DNA from: a virus
Taxonomy: Duplodnaviria > Caudoviricetes
DNA length: 52,717 nucleotides
Direction: 5' to 3' (one strand)
Virus record (IMG/VR): IMGVR_UViG_3300035701_000046
Span: 1 to 52,717 of that record
Shown here: in pieces, positions 17,525 to 37,697 of the stretch
How positions within the stretch are numbered: position 1 is the stretch's first letter
How the letters are laid out: each line of letters begins with the position of its first letter
Translations under genes and position numbers: made by a program
Notes under the pieces: model-generated
The model's input: the letters and a program-made list of their open reading frames with translations, nothing else
Told to the model about the DNA's origin: nothing
Database searches by the model: none

Positions 17525-18349
17525 ATGTCCGAACGTCCGAAGACCCCCGAGCTGTCCATTGTGGATGGCGGCAAGCCAGAGGGACAGGCGGGCCAATCCC
17601 GTCCCGAGGGTTTACCGGGGCAGAAATGCTTGGCGCGGCGTCGTGTTTGCGCATGCACTCACCGCTTCGTCAAGGATGAGCGGATCGTCGATCGTGATCT
17701 ATCTGTGCGTATGCGGCCAGATTACGACCGGCGAAAGCTAGGGGTTTGCCCTAGCTGTGGGCTGGTCCGCGAACTCTGCGGCCAGCCTGCGGTAGAAGGC
17801 CGTTATGTTTGCCGCTTCCACGGCGGTAAAGCAGGCCGGAAGCCGATGGTCCCTGTTATTCACGCTCTCAGGGACGAAGACCGCGATGCTGTCGTCGCTT
17901 CGATCGAAGCGAAGGACGAAAACCTCACCGTCGAATTCCACGTCGTCAAGCACATCCTCGATTCCGTCCTCACCCAGTACGACCCCGAACTCGCTGACCT
18001 AGATTTCGCTGAACGCGCTGTCGCGCTGCTCGATCGTGTTTCTTCGATCGGCGAGCGTCGGGCGCGTCTACGTCTGCTTGTCCCGCCAGACCTAGAGAAG
18101 CTCAAGCTCGACTTCGGGGATCCTCGTGTTTCGCTCGCCATCAAAGAAAAGATGCGAGACAACTACGAGAAGGCTATCCGGGGAACCGTTCAACTGATGA
18201 TCGAAGCGGTGAGGCGGGATCCCAAATTACTCGAAGGCGTTATCAAGCTCCTGCCTGAGCGGCTTCGGAACTACATCGAAGTCGTTTCGGCTCGACCCGC
18301 ACAATTCCAGATCACTCTACCAAATGCCCAAGAAACCCCGGAGCAGTAG
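17525..18349 (+). CDS. terS: putative terminase small subunit (HGG zinc-finger type)
   Basis: 'CGQPAVEGRYVCRFHGG'; directly upstream of and overlapping terL. Confidence 0.65.
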   Translation: MSERPKTPELSIVDGGKPEGQAGQSRPEGLPGQKCLARRRVCACTHRFVKDERIVDRDLSVRMRPDYDRRKLGVCPSCGLVRELCGQPAVEGRYVCRFHGGKAGRKPMVPVIHALRDEDRDAVVASIEAKDENLTVEFHVVKHILDSVLTQYDPELADLDFAERAVALLDRVSSIGERRARLRLLVPPDLEKLKLDFGDPRVSLAIKEKMRDNYEKAIRGTVQLMIEAVRRDPKLLEGVIKLLPERLRNYIEVVSARPAQFQITLPNAQETPEQ

Positions 18350-20450
18350 CCCCGGTAACGGCAAGCCCAAGAAGAATGCCGATATCGACTCGCTACTCGA
18401 CGAGATACAGAATAACGCCCTGCGCGAGCTGTCGTTGCAGCTCCCCGAGGTCCACCAGATCGCGGCCCGATCCGGCGTGGGAAGCCCGGTCTCTGACATC
18501 GCGTGGGTCGAACAACCCGTTACGTTTCACGAGTTTGTAAACGATCCGTGGCACATGGATCAGCCGCCTTTGGGAGATCGGCAGCGCCAGGATATCGAGA
18601 CCTTTCTCGGCGAAGAACCGACGCAGATTTTCTCCCGGCTGGCATCCCATCTCGAAGGGGCCTTCCGCGAGGCGGTGCTTGTGTGGGGAAAGGGGGGCGG
18701 AAAAGACTGGATCTGCACGATGGTTCAGTGCTATCTGGTCTACCTGCTCCTGTGCATCAAGGACCCCCGGCATGTTCTCGGTCTTGCCCCTCACGAAGCG
18801 GTAGACATTCTCAATGTCTCCTATTCGGCGAAACAGGCTAACGAGGTCTATTTCACGAAGTTCCTCCAGCGTATCCTGCACTGGCGCTGGCTCCGGCATA
18901 ACTATCCGATTGAGTTCCAGAGAAAAGTCATCAACCGGGAAGATCACCCTCATGCTCAGCTTCAGCCAGATGGGCAAAATTACGTTCATATTGGGGCTGA
19001 TCAGGTGCGCTTCCCCCACTTGATCCGCGCCATCAGCGAGCACAGTGAGAACGAGAGCTACGAAGGGTACAACATCCTTTTTTGGGTCATGGATGAAGCG
19101 GCAGCCTTCCGTAACGCCGGGAAAAAGGCGAACGCCCACAAGGTCTACTCTACCCTTCGGACCTCGGCGGTAAGCCGGTTCCCGCAGCTATGGCGGGGGA
19201 TGATGATCAGCTACCCCCGGAGTGCCGACGATTTCATCATGACCAAGTACGCCCAAGGCCAGGCGGACTCGGAGTGTTTCACCTCGCTCGCGTACACCTG
19301 GCAGGTAAATCCGACCAAACAAGAGTCCGATTTCGAGAAAGACCGGGAGAAGAACCCGGTCGAGTACGAGGCCAAGTACCGTTGTAATCCGCCCCCGCGT
19401 TTCGGGTCGGCATTCGACCCTCTAAACGTCGATGCCTGCGTGGATTACAGCCGGAAATCCTTGGTGAAGACAAAGCCCGCGATCATTTCCGCACGGGTAG
19501 AGGAACCCGGTACGGGAGTGGTATATCAGAGGCAGTTCGTTGGGAAATCGTTGACTGACGTGAACGTACACGATCTCGGAGAAAAGGCCCGCCCCCGTGT
19601 GTTTCACGTCGATGGCGGCCTGACGAACTGCCCTGCCGGGCTTGTCGTGGCTCATGGGGAACCAGTCATGGTTCAGGGTCAAGTCCTGAACAAAGTCGTG
19701 GTCGATGTCCTCTTGCAGTGGAAACCGCTGCCCTCGAAGCGGCTCCAGGTCTCGCTCAACAACATCGCGGCTTTCATCGAGACGCTTTCGCATCACATCA
19801 CGATCGTCCGGGGGAGTTACGATCAGTGGAACTCTCAGTCGGCTCTGGAAGCCCTTTTCTTGGCGAATATCCCGGTCGAGAAGCACGATATCACGGCGGA
19901 CGACTATGGATGCCTGGAGGGCCTCATTAACCTCGGCTGCATCGCTATTCCAGGGGATGACGAGACTGAGTGGGAGATCATTACCGCCGAGTTGAAGAAT
20001 CTCGTCCGGTACAATGTCGGTAGCAGGATCCGATACGACATCCCGCGCGAAGAGGGGGAGACCACACGGGACGATTGGGGAGGGCCTCGGTACACCAAGG
20101 ACATCGCGGACTGCCTCGCCGGGGTCTCGCGTCTCCTGAACGATCCCCTTATCCGGGCCGATGTCTCCGGGACTCGCGCGCCTGGCCTTATTGCTGGCCC
20201 GAGTATGAGTTCGCAGGGTCGGGGGCAGCCGATCAGCGCCCGGCGGGATCTCGCCAACCGGGGATACCTCCCCGAGAAACTTCCTGCCTCGACGTTCCCG
20301 ACGGAAGCCGGGTTCATGGGGGCGCAGATGAATCAATCGTCGCGAGCCGCGAATCAGCATGTGCTCCTCACGGAGATCGCGGGGAAGATGCGTCTACGTG
20401 GCATCAACGAGCCGACGACCCGTAGACCGCCGAAACCGATTATCAAGTAA
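18324..20450 (+). CDS. terL: terminase large subunit
   Basis: Walker A 'WGKGGGKD', Walker B 'WVMDEAA', 'ISYPR', nuclease 'FHVDGG', 'SYDQWNS', 'KDIADC'. Confidence 0.92.
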   Translation: MPKKPRSSSPGNGKPKKNADIDSLLDEIQNNALRELSLQLPEVHQIAARSGVGSPVSDIAWVEQPVTFHEFVNDPWHMDQPPLGDRQRQDIETFLGEEPTQIFSRLASHLEGAFREAVLVWGKGGGKDWICTMVQCYLVYLLLCIKDPRHVLGLAPHEAVDILNVSYSAKQANEVYFTKFLQRILHWRWLRHNYPIEFQRKVINREDHPHAQLQPDGQNYVHIGADQVRFPHLIRAISEHSENESYEGYNILFWVMDEAAAFRNAGKKANAHKVYSTLRTSAVSRFPQLWRGMMISYPRSADDFIMTKYAQGQADSECFTSLAYTWQVNPTKQESDFEKDREKNPVEYEAKYRCNPPPRFGSAFDPLNVDACVDYSRKSLVKTKPAIISARVEEPGTGVVYQRQFVGKSLTDVNVHDLGEKARPRVFHVDGGLTNCPAGLVVAHGEPVMVQGQVLNKVVVDVLLQWKPLPSKRLQVSLNNIAAFIETLSHHITIVRGSYDQWNSQSALEALFLANIPVEKHDITADDYGCLEGLINLGCIAIPGDDETEWEIITAELKNLVRYNVGSRIRYDIPREEGETTRDDWGGPRYTKDIADCLAGVSRLLNDPLIRADVSGTRAPGLIAGPSMSSQGRGQPISARRDLANRGYLPEKLPASTFPTEAGFMGAQMNQSSRAANQHVLLTEIAGKMRLRGINEPTTRRPPKPIIK

Positions 20451-33081: not shown

Positions 33082-35040
33082 ATGAGGACGATTGTCATGG
33101 CAAGTCGTTATGAGATCGTACCGGCGAGTTCTCTCCAAACGAACAAGCTGGACGAAGGTTTCCGCGAACTGACGCGGGGACGCCCGTTCAATCGTGTCAT
33201 CAAGACTTCGGCACAAGGCGGGCAGAGAAGCCTGATGCGGGTCCCAACACAGGGAATGTCGCAGGGGATGCCCCGGTCGTTGCAGAAGTATTCGGCGATG
33301 GCAGGCGGATCGTCGTGGCGGCATACGAGGACCGAGTTCCTGGAGCCGCAGGTCCGCGATCCCTTGCTCTCTGCCAGCAACTTCTATCTGCCGACGGATC
33401 GGGTGATGATGAATGCCTGGATCCGCTACTTCGATCGTTTCCACCCGATTGTCGGGAACGCGATCGACATGCACGCGACGGTGCCGTTCTCGAAGTTCCA
33501 GTTAAAGGACATCGACGACCCTGCCATCCGGCTGTTCTACGAGGACATGACGACCGAGGTCAACCTCTTCCGCCGTATCCTGGAGATCAGCCGCGAGTAC
33601 GAGCTGATCGGCGAAGTCTTCCCGTTTGCGTACTGGGACGACGAGATGAACGCTTTCAGCGAAATCGTCATCCTCAACCCCGATACCGTGGAAGTCATTG
33701 GTATCTACATCGCTGGTGAACGAACCTGGCGCTACGAGCTTGTGCCGGACCCGACCGTTGTGGCTTTCTTGCGGTCGGATAACCCCCTCGATTGGGAGAT
33801 CGTGCAGGAGATCGATCCGGCGATCATCCGGGCCGCACAGACGGATACGAATGCCCCCCTTGACCCGTTCAACCTCTCGCACCTCGCGCGTAAGCAAAGT
33901 CCTTACGATGATCGCGGGGTCAGCATCATCATGGGCTGTCTCAAGGACCTGCTCTACGAGGAGCAGCTTTTGGAAGCTCAGTATGCGATCACCGGGGGTA
34001 TCGTCCGCCCTCGTGAAATCTGGAAGCTCGGTATCCCCGGCGAGTACATGCCGACCGATGAGGACCTCATGGACCTCAGAAATTTGCTCGCCGCTTCCGA
34101 GTTCGACCCCAACTTCGCTCTGATCAGTCACCACGGCCTCACCGTGGAATTCGTCGGCGCAGACCGGCGGATCCTGCCGATCATCCCCGAACGGCAGCAG
34201 ATTGAGGACCGTCTTCTTACCCGCCTCTACACGAACAAGGCCATCACACACGGGGAAGGCCCAACCTACGCGAATGCCTCGGTGGCGATGCAATTTATCG
34301 CTGCGCGATACGCGACGAAACGTGACTACATCACCGAGTGGATTCGAGACAAGGTCTTCCTGCCGACCTCGTTGGCCAATGAGTTCTACCACCCGCTTGC
34401 CCCCCACATGACCTCCGGCCAAGGGCCGTGGATGAGGACCTCGGGGCAACGCGAGCTTGTCATCCCCGATTTCCAGTGGCTTTCCCTCGTCGATCTCACC
34501 GACAAGGGCCAGAAACTTCAGTACGCGATGCAGCTTGCAACGCAGGCGCGTCTGCCGATGAAGACGATCCTCGATCTTCTCCAGATCGATTCGAGCGAGG
34601 TCGAGTTCTGGCTTGAAGAAGAAGAAGGGACCCGACTCGACGCGATTTACCAGTCTACCCGGAAGATGGTCCAGGAAGCCCGAGCGCGGGTTGAGGAAAC
34701 GAAGAAACTCGCTCCCGGCGCTCCGGGTGCTGGTGGACAACAGCCTGGCGGAGCCGGTGGGGAAAAGAACACTCCCGAGGGGATCGCTGATGATCTCCGG
34801 CAGAAGTCTGAGAAGGACGAAAAGGCCCAGGAAAAAGTGCCCCCCCCGGTCAAACCGGCAGCGGAGCAGGCTCAACCGACGGAGCCAAAGACAGAGCCAG
34901 CGGTGCGCCAGGGCGCAGTGGTGTTCGGCCCTTTCGATCTGAAGCCAGGGGAGAACATCTTTGCCGGTGCGGAAACCCTGGAAGGCTCTCTCTTGGACAT
35001 ATTCCGCATGGGGCCGCCCGACAAACCGCCCAAGACCTAG
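33082..35040 (+). CDS. portal protein
   Basis: 652 aa; 'HPIVGNAID', 'IGEVF', 'ILNPD', 'PYDDRGVSI', 'TYANASVA'; disordered C-tail; followed by MuF. Confidence 0.85.
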   Translation: MRTIVMASRYEIVPASSLQTNKLDEGFRELTRGRPFNRVIKTSAQGGQRSLMRVPTQGMSQGMPRSLQKYSAMAGGSSWRHTRTEFLEPQVRDPLLSASNFYLPTDRVMMNAWIRYFDRFHPIVGNAIDMHATVPFSKFQLKDIDDPAIRLFYEDMTTEVNLFRRILEISREYELIGEVFPFAYWDDEMNAFSEIVILNPDTVEVIGIYIAGERTWRYELVPDPTVVAFLRSDNPLDWEIVQEIDPAIIRAAQTDTNAPLDPFNLSHLARKQSPYDDRGVSIIMGCLKDLLYEEQLLEAQYAITGGIVRPREIWKLGIPGEYMPTDEDLMDLRNLLAASEFDPNFALISHHGLTVEFVGADRRILPIIPERQQIEDRLLTRLYTNKAITHGEGPTYANASVAMQFIAARYATKRDYITEWIRDKVFLPTSLANEFYHPLAPHMTSGQGPWMRTSGQRELVIPDFQWLSLVDLTDKGQKLQYAMQLATQARLPMKTILDLLQIDSSEVEFWLEEEEGTRLDAIYQSTRKMVQEARARVEETKKLAPGAPGAGGQQPGGAGGEKNTPEGIADDLRQKSEKDEKAQEKVPPPVKPAAEQAQPTEPKTEPAVRQGAVVFGPFDLKPGENIFAGAETLEGSLLDIFRMGPPDKPPKT

Positions 35041-37355
35041 ATGCCATCTCCCGAGAGAGCTGGCAGAGGCGTCTTTGGTTCACGAACATCGGCAACTCGT
35101 CTCGGAAAGTCATCATCGACCTGGAAAATCGGTTCCTTGACCTCCACGCGGTCAAGGCAGAGGACTTCGTCTCGAACCTGGTGTCGGACTACGAGGCGCG
35201 GGGCAGAATCGATCCTGAAGCGATTTCCAGGGCACTCACCACGCACCTTGAGGGCCTATCCGTCTCCGGGTCCGATTTCCTTCAGAAAAGCCTAGAAAGT
35301 TTACATCATAATTCACTCATCGATGCCCTGAACCGGGCGGGATTCCGGCGCGAGGTCCGCCGGATGTCGAAGCAGGCCCAGACAGCGGGGGAACGCGATG
35401 AGCAGCTCCGGCGTTCGTTCGATATGGCCTTCCGCAGTGTCACGTCGCTGCCGGATGAAATCGTCGAGCGGATCCGGTCCAGGATTCTCAAGAATCTCGA
35501 AGAGGGCCGGGGTAGCACCGAGAAGGTACTCCGGGCGATTATCCAAGAGGAAATCGAGGGCCTCGGGGAGATGGACCCGGTCTCCCTGCGCAAGGCGATT
35601 CGGAAAATCTGGGACGAGACCAAACGAGACCTTCAGCGCGTAATCCGGTCCGAATCGATCAACGCCTACTCGCGGGTGCAACTCAAGGAATGGGCCGATC
35701 GCGGCATCAAGCGTGTCCGCCGGAAGAGCATCGACGATGATCGAACGTGTGCGATCTGCCGCGAGCTTTCTCGTCCGGGGACGAACATCTACGACATCGA
35801 GGCGCTCCTGCGTCTCGACTACCCTGTCAGTCAGGACCCCGACACCGGCGAGTGGATGACGCATCCGAACTGTTTCTTGCCAGGCACGTTAGTCAGAGGG
35901 GATTTTGTGGCTGGAAGCCGGGCCATCTATAATGGCCCTGCTCGGGAGATACGGACGGCGAGGGGTGAATGTCTTCGCGTCACGCCCAATCATCCGATAC
36001 TTACCAAGAAAGGATTCGTCCCCGCGAAGGATCTCGGGCCAGGCGATAATCTCGTTTGCTACAACGCTCCAGAGAACAGGCCCGCTTCCGTTGGCCTGAG
36101 TACAAACAATCAGCAAGAACCAACCCGAATCGAGGATGTATTCCATACGATCCGAGAGATGGCGAAGGCGGCCCATCGCCGCCTTGATATTACTGCCAAG
36201 GATTTCCACGGCGACGCGAGTTTCTTCGTGGGCGAAGTCGAGATTGTATCGCTCAATGGGGAGCTGAGAAACGAATCCCTTTCCTTTGAGCCAGTCACCG
36301 AGGAAGATTTCGTCTTGGGATCGGTTGCTCTGAAGTCGGAAGCGAGTGATCGCACGCTGCCGATAAACGTCGTCGGTGTGGCACCCAGCGATTTGACGTG
36401 CTCGAACTGTGGGCGTCATCTTCGACCACTTCAATCTCTCTGCATCGGACTGCCCACGGAGATCAACGCCTTGTTCCTGGAATCGGTGGGCCAGGGCAAA
36501 GCGTCCAATGCCCGTAATCTTCGAGAGGGTATTGAGAGATTCCCCGGCGTGGTAACGAGTGATCAGGTTGTCGAGATCCTGGATTTCAATTTTTCTGGTG
36601 ATGTTTATGACCTCCAATCTACGTCGGGTTACATTGTAGCACAGACTGTCGTTGCTGGAAATTGCCGCTGTTGGTTCGAACCCTTGATTGACGATGTCTG
36701 GTCGGAGCTTGAGGGGATGGAGGCGCAACTCCTCGCAGATATCACACGGGGTGAAGCTACTGCCCGAGATGTTCCGATCGATTCTCAGAGGACGGTGGAG
36801 AAGGCGCTTCGAGAACACAAGAAGGTTGAGATGGACGTGCGCTTCGTCCCGAGGATTGTTGACCTTCCCGAGTGGCAAGCTGTCCGGCGTGAAGAGTTGG
36901 CCAGCGATGTCGGATCGGAAAAGGCAAAGGTTCTCTTGCAGGGCGAGATTTTCGCAAACGAAGTCGTTGAGTGGACAGACTCCGATACGGGTACCCATTA
37001 TGTCGCTTCCCAGGCTCAAGAAATCGAGCACGTGAGTACGCCGATCGCGCGTGCCGCAGCCGAGAAGCTGTGGGATGGCGGGGTCGTGCCTCATGCTTGG
37101 GTCGCGACTCGATACCGCGAGAAAAAGGCATCTCTCAACGCGACTCTCGAAGTCGAGGGCTACAAAATCTACGGTGGGCAGCCTTTCCCGAACGAAATCG
37201 CTGCGCAGAGTGTCCGCGACTATTTCGTTGAAAGTTATAGTCTTTACGTCGTCCAACCTTATATCCTGGAGACCGCCGACCCCGAGATGTACGAATGGCT
37301 CCGCGTTGAGGTCTTTGGCGGGCGGGAGTTCATGCAAAGGGGTGGGATAAAGTAG
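35010..37355 (+). CDS. MuF/minor head protein with intein and degenerate zincin-like C-terminus; 5' end unresolved (first start codon 35181)
   Basis: 'RVIRSESINAY', 'DDDRTCAIC', 'HPN|intein|CRC'; frame looks protein-like from ~35010. Confidence 0.85.
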   Translation, partial: GAARQTAQDLDAISRESWQRRLWFTNIGNSSRKVIIDLENRFLDLHAVKAEDFVSNLVSDYEARGRIDPEAISRALTTHLEGLSVSGSDFLQKSLESLHHNSLIDALNRAGFRREVRRMSKQAQTAGERDEQLRRSFDMAFRSVTSLPDEIVERIRSRILKNLEEGRGSTEKVLRAIIQEEIEGLGEMDPVSLRKAIRKIWDETKRDLQRVIRSESINAYSRVQLKEWADRGIKRVRRKSIDDDRTCAICRELSRPGTNIYDIEALLRLDYPVSQDPDTGEWMTHPNCFLPGTLVRGDFVAGSRAIYNGPAREIRTARGECLRVTPNHPILTKKGFVPAKDLGPGDNLVCYNAPENRPASVGLSTNNQQEPTRIEDVFHTIREMAKAAHRRLDITAKDFHGDASFFVGEVEIVSLNGELRNESLSFEPVTEEDFVLGSVALKSEASDRTLPINVVGVAPSDLTCSNCGRHLRPLQSLCIGLPTEINALFLESVGQGKASNARNLREGIERFPGVVTSDQVVEILDFNFSGDVYDLQSTSGYIVAQTVVAGNCRCWFEPLIDDVWSELEGMEAQLLADITRGEATARDVPIDSQRTVEKALREHKKVEMDVRFVPRIVDLPEWQAVRREELASDVGSEKAKVLLQGEIFANEVVEWTDSDTGTHYVASQAQEIEHVSTPIARAAAEKLWDGGVVPHAWVATRYREKKASLNATLEVEGYKIYGGQPFPNEIAAQSVRDYFVESYSLYVVQPYILETADPEMYEWLRVEVFGGREFMQRGGIK
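35889..36602 (-). CDS. antisense HTH + Vsr/DUF559-like endonuclease nested in the intein (237 aa, ATC at expected start)
   Basis: HTH 'RYHAGESLNTLSKITGIGRFALAHRFQEQGVDLR'; 'SQDEIFLGDWL..SQLPIERYNLDFA..RVAVEILG..YILDSGWFLLIV'; GGAGG SD at 36615-36611. Confidence 0.8.
   Translation of the reverse strand: MTRKIEIQDLDNLITRYHAGESLNTLSKITGIGRFALAHRFQEQGVDLRGQSDAERLKWSKMTPTVRARQIAGCHTDDVYRQRAITRFRLQSNRSQDEIFLGDWLKGKGFVSQLPIERYNLDFAHEETRVAVEILGSNIKAAMGRLRHLSDRMEYILDSGWFLLIVCTQANGSGPVLWSVVANEIIAWPEILRGDESFLGKYRMIGRDAKTFTPRRPYLPSRAIIDGPASSHKIPSD
36633..36643 (-). promoter_or_regulatory. extended -10 promoter candidate for the antisense nuclease
   Basis: TGTGCTACAAT on the minus strand, ~17 nt upstream of the SD. 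Confidence 0.55.
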
Positions 37356-37445: not shown

Positions 37446-37697
37446 ATGATGGCGAAAGTCTCGAAGACGAATAGTCGGCTCCGTCGTGAACTTCAGCCTG
37501 TCTGCCGTGAGCTTGTTCGCGAGTGGGAACAGCAGGGATGGACGATTCGGGAGCTTTCGCGGGCCGCTGGAGTTAGCCACGTAACCCTTCACAACATCAA
37601 GCGAGGCGGGTTACCAACGCTGATTATACTGAGGCGTATCGCAATCGCCCTGGAAATCCACCCGAGCGTGTTCTTTCGAGAGGTGGAAACGAGATGA
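37446..37697 (+). CDS. XRE/Cro-like HTH regulator
   Basis: 'GWTIRELSRAAGVSHVTLHNIKRG..PTLIILRRIAIALE'. Confidence 0.9.
   Translation: MMAKVSKTNSRLRRELQPVCRELVREWEQQGWTIRELSRAAGVSHVTLHNIKRGGLPTLIILRRIAIALEIHPSVFFREVETR

Follow-up and report, generated by a model that had tools for sequence, protein, structure and literature searches.

We describe an intein in the MuF-like head morphogenesis gene of an IMG/VR phage contig, IMGVR_UViG_3300035701_000046 (52.7 kb, 52,717 nucleotides; hereafter the window), which is overlapped on the opposite strand by a gene for a putative homing endonuclease. We consider it very likely that the insertion in MuF is a class-1-type intein in which the space between splicing blocks B and F is the reverse complement of an endonuclease gene of the free-standing type, with an N-terminal helix-turn-helix (HTH) region and a C-terminal Vsr/DUF559-like domain. 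The product of the antisense frame belongs to a genuine, conserved family of proteins with an HTH and a Vsr/DUF559-like nuclease fold and, judged from comparison of related sequences, purifying selection in the overlap acts mainly on that frame.

An antisense-encoded nuclease family

The antisense frame is aligned codon by codon with the MuF frame and is open from position 37592 down to the TAA at 35891-35889; endonuclease residues are numbered below from an in-frame TTG at 36617-36615. Taken alone, the window product is a weak match to known families. Pfam gave DUF559 with E 0.0015 and 18.8 bits, below the cut-off of 20.6, NCBIfam gave DUF559 only (E 0.13), PHROGs contain no family for it, and a word-indexed protein search with it returned nothing. 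Relatives emerged only in a full HMMER scan: phmmer against 1.84 billion representatives retrieved 1187 proteins at E<=1e-3, 556 of them at E<=1e-10. Many of the matches are 230-245 residues long, with their residue 2 opposite query residue 7, and the nearest protein, P0003, is 40% identical to the window product.

The window product was aligned with 75 relatives (alignment A1, 76 rows). Y22, R54, and D127 are invariant, and sixteen further columns are conserved to at least 90%, including E103, Q118, Y124, N125, E138, and R157. Three acidic residues, all present in the window copy, are retained almost throughout (E103 in 73 of the 76 rows, D127 in 76, and E138 in 75). The A1 profile matched the DUF559 structure 3hrl over nearly the whole chain (E 1.9e-6), with D127 and E138 aligned to the D of VDF and the E of VEADG, respectively, and E103, D127, and E138 are candidate catalytic residues. 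Among the 76 members, Pfam recognized MTES_1575 in 49 (best E 1.2e-11), DUF559 in 29, HTH_58 in 33, and HTH_7 in 25.

An AlphaFold2 (AF2) model of the product had a predicted local distance difference test score (pLDDT) of 37.6 when built from the single sequence and of 91.7, with a predicted template modelling score of 0.78, when A1 was supplied. The HTH module comprises helices 15-23, 28-35, and 39-48 (pLDDT ~97). In VIA-align comparisons, the model matched Vsr (1cw0) with Z 10.1 (116 residues aligned, root-mean-square deviation (rmsd) 3.0), DUF559 (3hrl) with Z 10.0 (88/94, rmsd 2.0), a second Vsr entry (1vsr) with Z 9.4, and the homing endonuclease I-Bth0305I (3r3p) with Z 8.9 (95/97, rmsd 2.9); the other rows were three mitoribosome chains (Z 7.5-8.3) and matches with Z of at most 5.6. 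Foldseek returned no match at E<=0.001, with Vsr ranked first. The initial annotation of the window, made from its letters alone, had read an HTH followed by a Vsr/DUF559-type nuclease on this strand; that reading is weak for the single sequence and clear for the family, by profile and by structural comparison alike.

In many relatives (P0008, P0016, L005-L015, L025, and L028) the HTH module is tandemly duplicated, two to four times, whereas the window has one module. Inteins of the relatives with duplicated modules are longer, 317-329 residues compared with 264-275.

Selection on the two reading frames

A tblastn search of GenBank phages gave matches to the intein in 123 records and to the antisense product in 100. 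By organism, the sense search returned 62 Salmonella, 15 Gordonia, 14 Pseudomonas, 8 Klebsiella, and 6 Escherichia records, and Cronobacter and Mycobacterium phages are also among the relatives. Among the matches listed, the host genes are MuF, head morphogenesis, or minor capsid genes or are unnamed, save for two annotated otherwise and one unannotated record. Scans of IMG/VR with the window intein and with its antisense product found no relative. We fetched 28 related loci (12 from GenBank and 16 from IMG/VR), and all 28 have the same MuF insertion site and an intact antisense open reading frame (ORF), which bears out the expectation that the antisense frame would stay open in homologous inteins. 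The Jerseyvirus antisense product had appeared to be truncated (58% tblastn coverage), an impression rejected on finding the frames intact. Removal of the near-duplicates L008, L016, L018, and L029 left 25 non-redundant loci with G+C contents (GC) of 0.38-0.69.

Across these 25 loci, TTA, CTA, and TCA are absent from both strands of the overlap (0 of 6715 codons) but account for 164 of the 6660 codons in the flanking exteins. The difference persists in the ten loci with GC <0.46 (0/2801 overlap codons against 97/2276 extein codons). The nominal log10 P of this avoidance is ~-81, a figure that is overstated since the loci are related. The absence of these stop-mirror codons from the overlap indicates that selection holds both frames open.

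The distribution of substitutions tells the two frames apart. In the exteins of 12 close pairs of loci, sense position 3 was the most variable in every pair. Within the intein, sense position 1, which is the antisense wobble position, varied more than position 3 in ten pairs, with one tie and one reverse case. Variation at sense position 3 was ~0.58-0.60 in the exteins of the four Guernseyvirinae pairs (phages of Salmonella and Pantoea) but only 0.14-0.22 in their inteins. When only the endonuclease-aligned overlap was considered, antisense position 3 varied more than antisense position 1 in 12/12 pairs, and amino acid identity was greater in the antisense than in the sense frame in 277 of 300 pairs. 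Even the invariant sense motifs, FHGD and HLxPL, mirror antisense ones: FHGD lies opposite VAVE, and the Pro codon CCA of HLxPL lies opposite the TGG of W64.

The MuF intein

The intein begins with C1 (TGT, 35871-35873) and ends with an Asn (AAT, 36660-36662) followed by the +1 Cys (36663-36665). In 14 sense sequences, N264 is invariant, as are T38 and H41 of block B, and the +1 Cys is present in 29/29 loci. The window intein alone matches Pfam Intein_splicing with E 1.2e-6 and 28.9 bits (gathering cut-off, 35.8), and 12 of the 14 sense members match this family at E<=0.01, one matches Hint, and nothing else was found. A profile of the 14 sense sequences (A2) matched solved inteins in the Protein Data Bank (PDB) over their N-terminal regions (E 5.3e-8 to 3e-3); all 20 matches at E<=0.0031 were inteins or Hint domains. 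By its motifs, the insertion is a class-1-type intein, and splicing is predicted.

In Pfam and PDB sequence searches with the single sequence and with the 14-sequence profile, no LAGLIDADG, HNH, or other nuclease family was found in the sense middle, which by sequence corresponds to no known domain. GC by codon position is symmetric in the intein middle (0.61/0.44/0.61) and does not discriminate between the strands.

The intein interrupts a motif, THPN / CRC in the window, that is continuous in the intein-less MuF proteins of Brevibacillus phage Emery (AHPLCRVSW) and prophage Lj965 (LHPFCRTVP), the only two distant homologues that supplied it. They came from 22 weak records found at E<=1 when the end of the N-extein was compared with phages by tblastn; at 1e-5, this search found nothing. 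An inverted repeat of six pairs, TGGATGACGCATCCG, occurs at 35853-35867 (+), 4-18 nt 5' of the insertion point, in the WMTHP codons. The repeat may belong to a pseudo-palindromic endonuclease target, or it may have arisen by chance.

Candidate expression signals within the splicing blocks

The stop codon, a Shine-Dalgarno (SD)-like element, the start position, and a promoter-like element of the antisense gene all lie within the intein, opposite blocks A, F, and G, and are conserved in relatives at the level of sequence motifs, the promoter-like element in part. In the window the stop falls opposite block A; relatives have it 2-18 codons inside the intein, except L017, where it is three codons outside. 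The family start mirrors the sense His codon just before (V/I)Y(N/D)L: this codon is CAT, equivalent to an antisense ATG, in 19 of the 25 loci, compared with 37 of 84 His codons in the exteins. The start is shifted by one codon in two loci and lies elsewhere in three; in the later-added L033 it is CAC, equivalent to GTG.

Relatives keep a GAGG-type element at the block F position. In this block, Leu is encoded by CTC in 17/20 loci, compared with 89/527 extein Leu codons, a choice that places an antisense GAG(G) 8 nt before the start. A sigma-70-like match scoring at least 10 of 13 occurs no more than 75 nt upstream in 10/25 loci, compared with 1.4% of background windows. The window match is in the top 0.8% of windows in its own locus, and L013 and L014 have TTGACA-18-TATAAT with a TG at the equivalent place. 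A further promoter-like sequence, TTCTCA-16-TACAAT, was observed inside the endonuclease gene at 36270-36243 (-). Its TACAAT corresponds to the codons of the near-invariant Y124 N125, and the YN motif of the family tends to yield a -10-like hexamer.

These results largely uphold the initial annotation, which had given the intein ends, blocks A, B, F, and G, and a sense middle free of LAGLIDADG and HNH motifs, and had placed the antisense stop in the Leu codon of GTLV, the GGAGG opposite DLQ of block F, and the -10 element opposite YIVAQ. Its expectation of conserved start and SD signals agrees with the ATG and CTC counts above. The start was located correctly, opposite the codon before VYDL, but the window codon there is none of ATG, GTG, and TTG.

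Genomic context and feature coordinates

The contig also encodes a DnaB-like helicase, a SNF2-type helicase, a large terminase, and a portal protein, and the MuF gene lies directly 3' of the portal gene (33082-35040). The MuF gene matches Pfam Phage_Mu_F with E 0.036, and its N-extein matches minor head protein families of PHROG (best 7.9e-10). In the large terminase candidate (18324-20450, +, 708 residues), which has no Pfam match, 567 residues align to 366 positions of phrog_2, and the gene may, from this alignment, contain an insertion. An antisense ORF inside it (19422-20360, 312 residues) has no match. The features of the MuF locus are listed in Table 1.

Table 1. Coordinates of the MuF intein, the overlapping endonuclease gene, and their motifs in the window.
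Feature	Position	Strand	Remarks
MuF-like head morphogenesis / minor capsid gene	35181..37355	+	Intein-containing precursor, 724 codons counted from first GTG
Intein	35871..36662	+	264 residues (MuF residues 231-494); splits HPN / CRC of conserved MuF HPxCR motif
Splicing block A, CFLPGTLV	35871..35894	+	Leu codon TTA 35889-35891 = antisense stop TAA
Splicing block B, RVTPNHPILT	35976..36005	+	Contains invariant T38 and H41
Splicing blocks F and G, DVYDLQSTSGYIVAQTVVAGN	36600..36662	+	F = VYDL; G = VVAGN before +1 Cys
GGAGG	36611..36615	-	8 nt upstream of start position; complement of block F GAC CTC CAA (DLQ)
Sigma-70-like promoter match	36633..36661	-	TTTCCA-17-TACAAT, TG before -10; opposite last intein residues
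-10 element, TGTGCTACAAT	36643..36633	-	Complement of sense YIVAQ
Codon-aligned putative homing endonuclease gene	35889..36602	-	237 codons, family start position (ATC here) to TAA
Helix-turn-helix module	36474..36575	-	Three helices, residues 15-48
Vsr/DUF559/MTES_1575-like PD-(D/E)xK nuclease domain	35925..36329	-	
Conserved acidic residues	E103 36311-36309; D127 36239-36237; E138 36206-36204	-	

A model of the element

We hypothesize that the sense strand of the overlap is read through as a passenger linker of ~190 residues, which protein splicing would remove together with the intein, restoring the HPN-CRC motif of MuF. The endonuclease would be a separate product, transcribed from a promoter opposite blocks G and F and translated with the help of a GAGG-type ribosome site opposite block F. 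During co-infection, it would cut intein-less MuF alleles near the HPN / CRC codons, and repair would then copy the intein together with the endonuclease gene. An antisense transcript uncoupled from late MuF expression, as this model would have it, is suggested by the motif matches described above, which are its sole basis.

Several observations weigh against this model. The open antisense frame is uninformative by itself: with the codon usage of the window, 237 codons without an antisense stop are expected with P ~0.17, because the window exteins seldom use TTA, CTA, or TCA. Since openness in the window is at the chance level, significance was drawn from homology, fold, and comparative data; none of eight other antisense ORFs of the window (263-614 residues) has a Pfam match. 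The loci compared are mutually related, and nominal probabilities overstate their independence, while the closest relative of the window product, at the identity given above, is too distant for selection on the window lineage to be measured. The sense linker was examined through sequence profiles only. The penultimate intein residue of the window copy is Gly, which replaces the usual His (relatives have Ser or His). No promoter-like match with a score of at least 9 occurs in 12 of the 25 loci, among them all actinophage and other loci with GC >=0.62 and the loci L005, L006, L010, L017, and L028 of lower GC. In the window copy itself, the codon at the family start (36602-36600), opposite the sense codon before VYDL, is ATC, and neither ATG nor GTG occurs from the promoter-like element to residue 67. 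This copy also lacks ~8 residues at a conserved Gly column and has Cys in place of a conserved Ala (A79C).

The endonuclease gene of the window and alternative explanations

The upstream region reads TTGGAGGTCATAAAC-ATC in the window and TTGGAGGTTATAAAC-ATG in relatives, with a single-base difference in the start codon. The only standard start nearby is the TTG at 36617-36615, five codons upstream, which mirrors a sense Gln codon (CAA) and precedes GGAGG. An assembly error is excluded, as contigs from two other runs (X2 record 6 and X3 record 12) have ATC too. Contigs of four DNA runs, with patchy cover, have the sequence of the window save for one T>C at 36560. That change, from run X2, leaves Ser unaltered in the sense frame (AGT to AGC) and converts T20 to A in the endonuclease frame. 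Within the same patchy cover, no intein-less extein joint was found, an absence that counts neither for nor against homing. L032 (1896-2045), the one IMG/VR locus found with P0003 and 43% identical to it, is a second copy without a start codon, independent of the window copy. Its family start is AAA followed by ATC, with no ATG or GTG, and its other elements are retained: TTGACA-16-TATATA or TTGACA-18-TATAGT, GGAGG, and an intact frame of 254 codons.

Given ATC in the window against ATG in 19/25 loci, free expression of the window copy is doubtful, and from its sequence the endonuclease is probably made poorly or not at all. The initial annotation had proposed a dual-coding element that makes its nuclease as a free protein. 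Coding in two frames and a separate antisense gene are upheld for the family, but the free expression of the window copy is not, owing to the ATC.

The window endonuclease gene might accordingly be an unexpressible relic, in an intein kept by vertical descent since MuF needs splicing, with the frame open only through the rarity of TTA, CTA, and TCA in a GC-rich phage. The ATC, seen in two other runs as well, the absence of ATG and GTG close by, the deletion at the Gly column together with A79C, the chance-level openness of the frame, and the lack of any contig with exteins joined intein-free all fit such a relic. In contrast, the window copy retains 16 of the 19 conserved A1 columns, with E103, D127, and E138 among them (the third missing column, besides the two named, is a Met), its AF2 model is confident throughout, and both GGAGG and the promoter-like element are still present. 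The L032 lineage, likewise without ATG, keeps its signals and frame, and two losses confined to the start codon would be odd for random decay. We regard a relic as a serious possibility that falls somewhat short of even chances, and we judge it similarly plausible, if not quite probable, that the window copy is silent. Either this copy has taken a first step of decay or it uses a non-AUG start, and its sequence is compatible with both.

A broader version of the model holds that the whole cassette (sigma-70-type promoter, GAGG, ATG, and stop) is set in blocks A, F, and G by synonymous codons, forming a three-layer code conserved among the phages of Proteobacteria, Actinobacteria, and uncultured hosts, that the intein family is far commoner than a survey of actinophages suggests, and that the copies with ATC (window and L032) may be translated weakly from a non-AUG codon. 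We offer this version tentatively and consider it rather unlikely as a whole.

Two other explanations were considered. In a fractured gene of the kind described by Dassa et al. (2009), MuF would consist of two polypeptides, each bearing one half of a split intein, and the sense overlap would be untranslated. The main text of that paper reports Vsr-like endonuclease genes between split-intein halves in phage genes (PMC2677866). However, the sense frame is open over the whole overlap in 25/25 loci, and the avoidance of TTA, CTA, and TCA there (0/6715) implies that it must be read through; moreover, the window contains no sense stop, start, or ribosome site between the halves, which makes a fractured gene highly improbable. 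Least likely of all is a mirror artefact, in which the sense linker would be the real domain and antisense conservation would merely follow from codon alignment: codon-aligned antisense translations of homologous genes do match each other in tblastn, and FHGD and HLxPL are invariant in the sense frame, but the antisense profile has matches in real families and to a solved structure of DUF559, its model is a confident fold (pLDDT 91.7) with a Vsr-like core, sense third positions are constrained and sense first positions free, the sense invariants reflect antisense catalytic motifs (FHGD/VAVE; Pro/W64), and the sense profile has no domain match in its middle.

Implications

The overlap described here is a clean, statistically strong case of long, antiparallel, fully overlapping protein-coding frames in phage, in which one strand codes for an enzyme and the other need only stay open and be spliced out. 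It lends support to the idea that inteins become mobile through the capture of free-standing endonuclease genes. Such genes escape gene callers and annotators: L002 (Salmonella phage vB_StyS-sam) is alone among the 12 GenBank loci in annotating the antisense ORF in the intein, and only in part (402 nt). This record also has a short annotated same-strand ORF, and the other 11 annotate the MuF gene alone there. Phages of Salmonella, Pseudomonas, and Klebsiella that carry the element are tractable systems for studying antisense expression, homing, and splicing. Among its carriers are cultivable Salmonella Jerseyvirus and Pseudomonas phages, which would allow a direct test.

Comparison with known systems

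In their main text, Dassa et al. (2009) reported split-intein halves with Vsr-like endonuclease genes lying between them and stated that Vsr-like domains were then not known in inteins (PMC2677866). The element in the window shares with these fractured genes, as that text presents them, a phage host gene, an intein, and a Vsr-like endonuclease as a gene of its own that has separate control elements. In a fractured gene, the host coding sequence is divided between two ORFs. The window instead has an inverted endonuclease gene, a sense strand that reads through it, a contiguous intein, and a single sense frame, which is also present in 25/25 non-redundant loci. The main text of Dassa et al. contains none of the terms 'antisense', 'opposite strand', 'complementary strand', 'reverse strand', and 'opposite orientation'.

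I-Bth0305I, an HTH and Vsr-like homing endonuclease of the EDxHD family (PDB 3r3p; Taylor et al. 2011, PMC3239194), resembles the antisense product in arrangement, with an HTH-type DNA-binding region at the N terminus and a Vsr-like nuclease at the C terminus, and aligns structurally with it over nearly the whole length of 3r3p (Z 8.9, 95/97 residues). Unlike the antisense gene, it is encoded on the sense strand in a group I intron. Of the EDxHD motif, the E and the D are conserved in the antisense family, and no His or second Asp reaches 90% in any sequence column. By sequence, the family is closer to DUF559 and MTES_1575 than to I-Bth0305I.

Endonucleases outside the intein frame have also been reported. 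According to the preprint of Phillips et al. (bioRxiv 10.64898/2026.09.14.751524), a cyanobacterial dnaX intein contains an out-of-frame endonuclease. As in the present case, the endonuclease occupies a frame other than that of the intein, probably after secondary invasion of a mini-intein; the nuclease family (LAGLIDADG in dnaX), the host gene, and the organisms differ. Antisense LAGLIDADG inteins were reported by Gorbalenya (1998) and Gogarten (2002), as cited in the main text of Gosselin et al. (2025).

The closest precedent is the work of Gosselin, Arsenault, and Gogarten (bioRxiv 10.1101/2025.01.02.630785, version of 20 October 2025), whose main text describes anti-sense VSR-like homing endonucleases in full inteins of actinobacteriophages. 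A minor capsid protein is among the four types of host protein of these non-canonical inteins; the sense endonuclease region has no recognisable structure, a model matches 1CW0 with Z 10.6, and members match 3R3P by HHpred at 4.6e-5. The initial annotation had held the architecture to be undescribed, a claim that this preprint contradicts: the window is a further case of a recently described arrangement.

On the evidence of that main text, the element in the window agrees with the actinophage inteins in its contiguous intein, open sense frame, antisense Vsr-like ORF, and MuF-like host gene, and in its 1CW0 match (Z 10.1 here and 10.6 there). The antisense ORF here reaches from the complement of block F to that of block A. 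The relatives found here likewise include Gordonia and Mycobacterium phages. In L026 (Gordonia phage Sedona, gene 16) and L027 (APunk, gene 17), we observed antisense Vsr-like ORFs of 245 codons, with GPYNLDFCAHGR(I/V)AVEVH, in MuF-like genes; the text of Gosselin et al. places Sedona and Keitabear in a cluster called endonuclease VII-like. Unlike the actinophages of that main text, the window copy comes from a phage of a sediment metagenome with a GC of 0.57, and its relatives reach phages of Salmonella (62 records), Pseudomonas, Klebsiella, Escherichia, Cronobacter, and others and, at the protein level, 1187 clusters. The terms 'promoter', 'ribosome binding', 'start codon', and 'expression' do not occur in the main text of Gosselin et al. 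Three findings do not appear in the main texts of the cited work: the spread past actinophages, the evidence from stop avoidance and codon positions, and the candidate signals inside the splicing blocks, the last of which are a concrete, testable addition to the published description.

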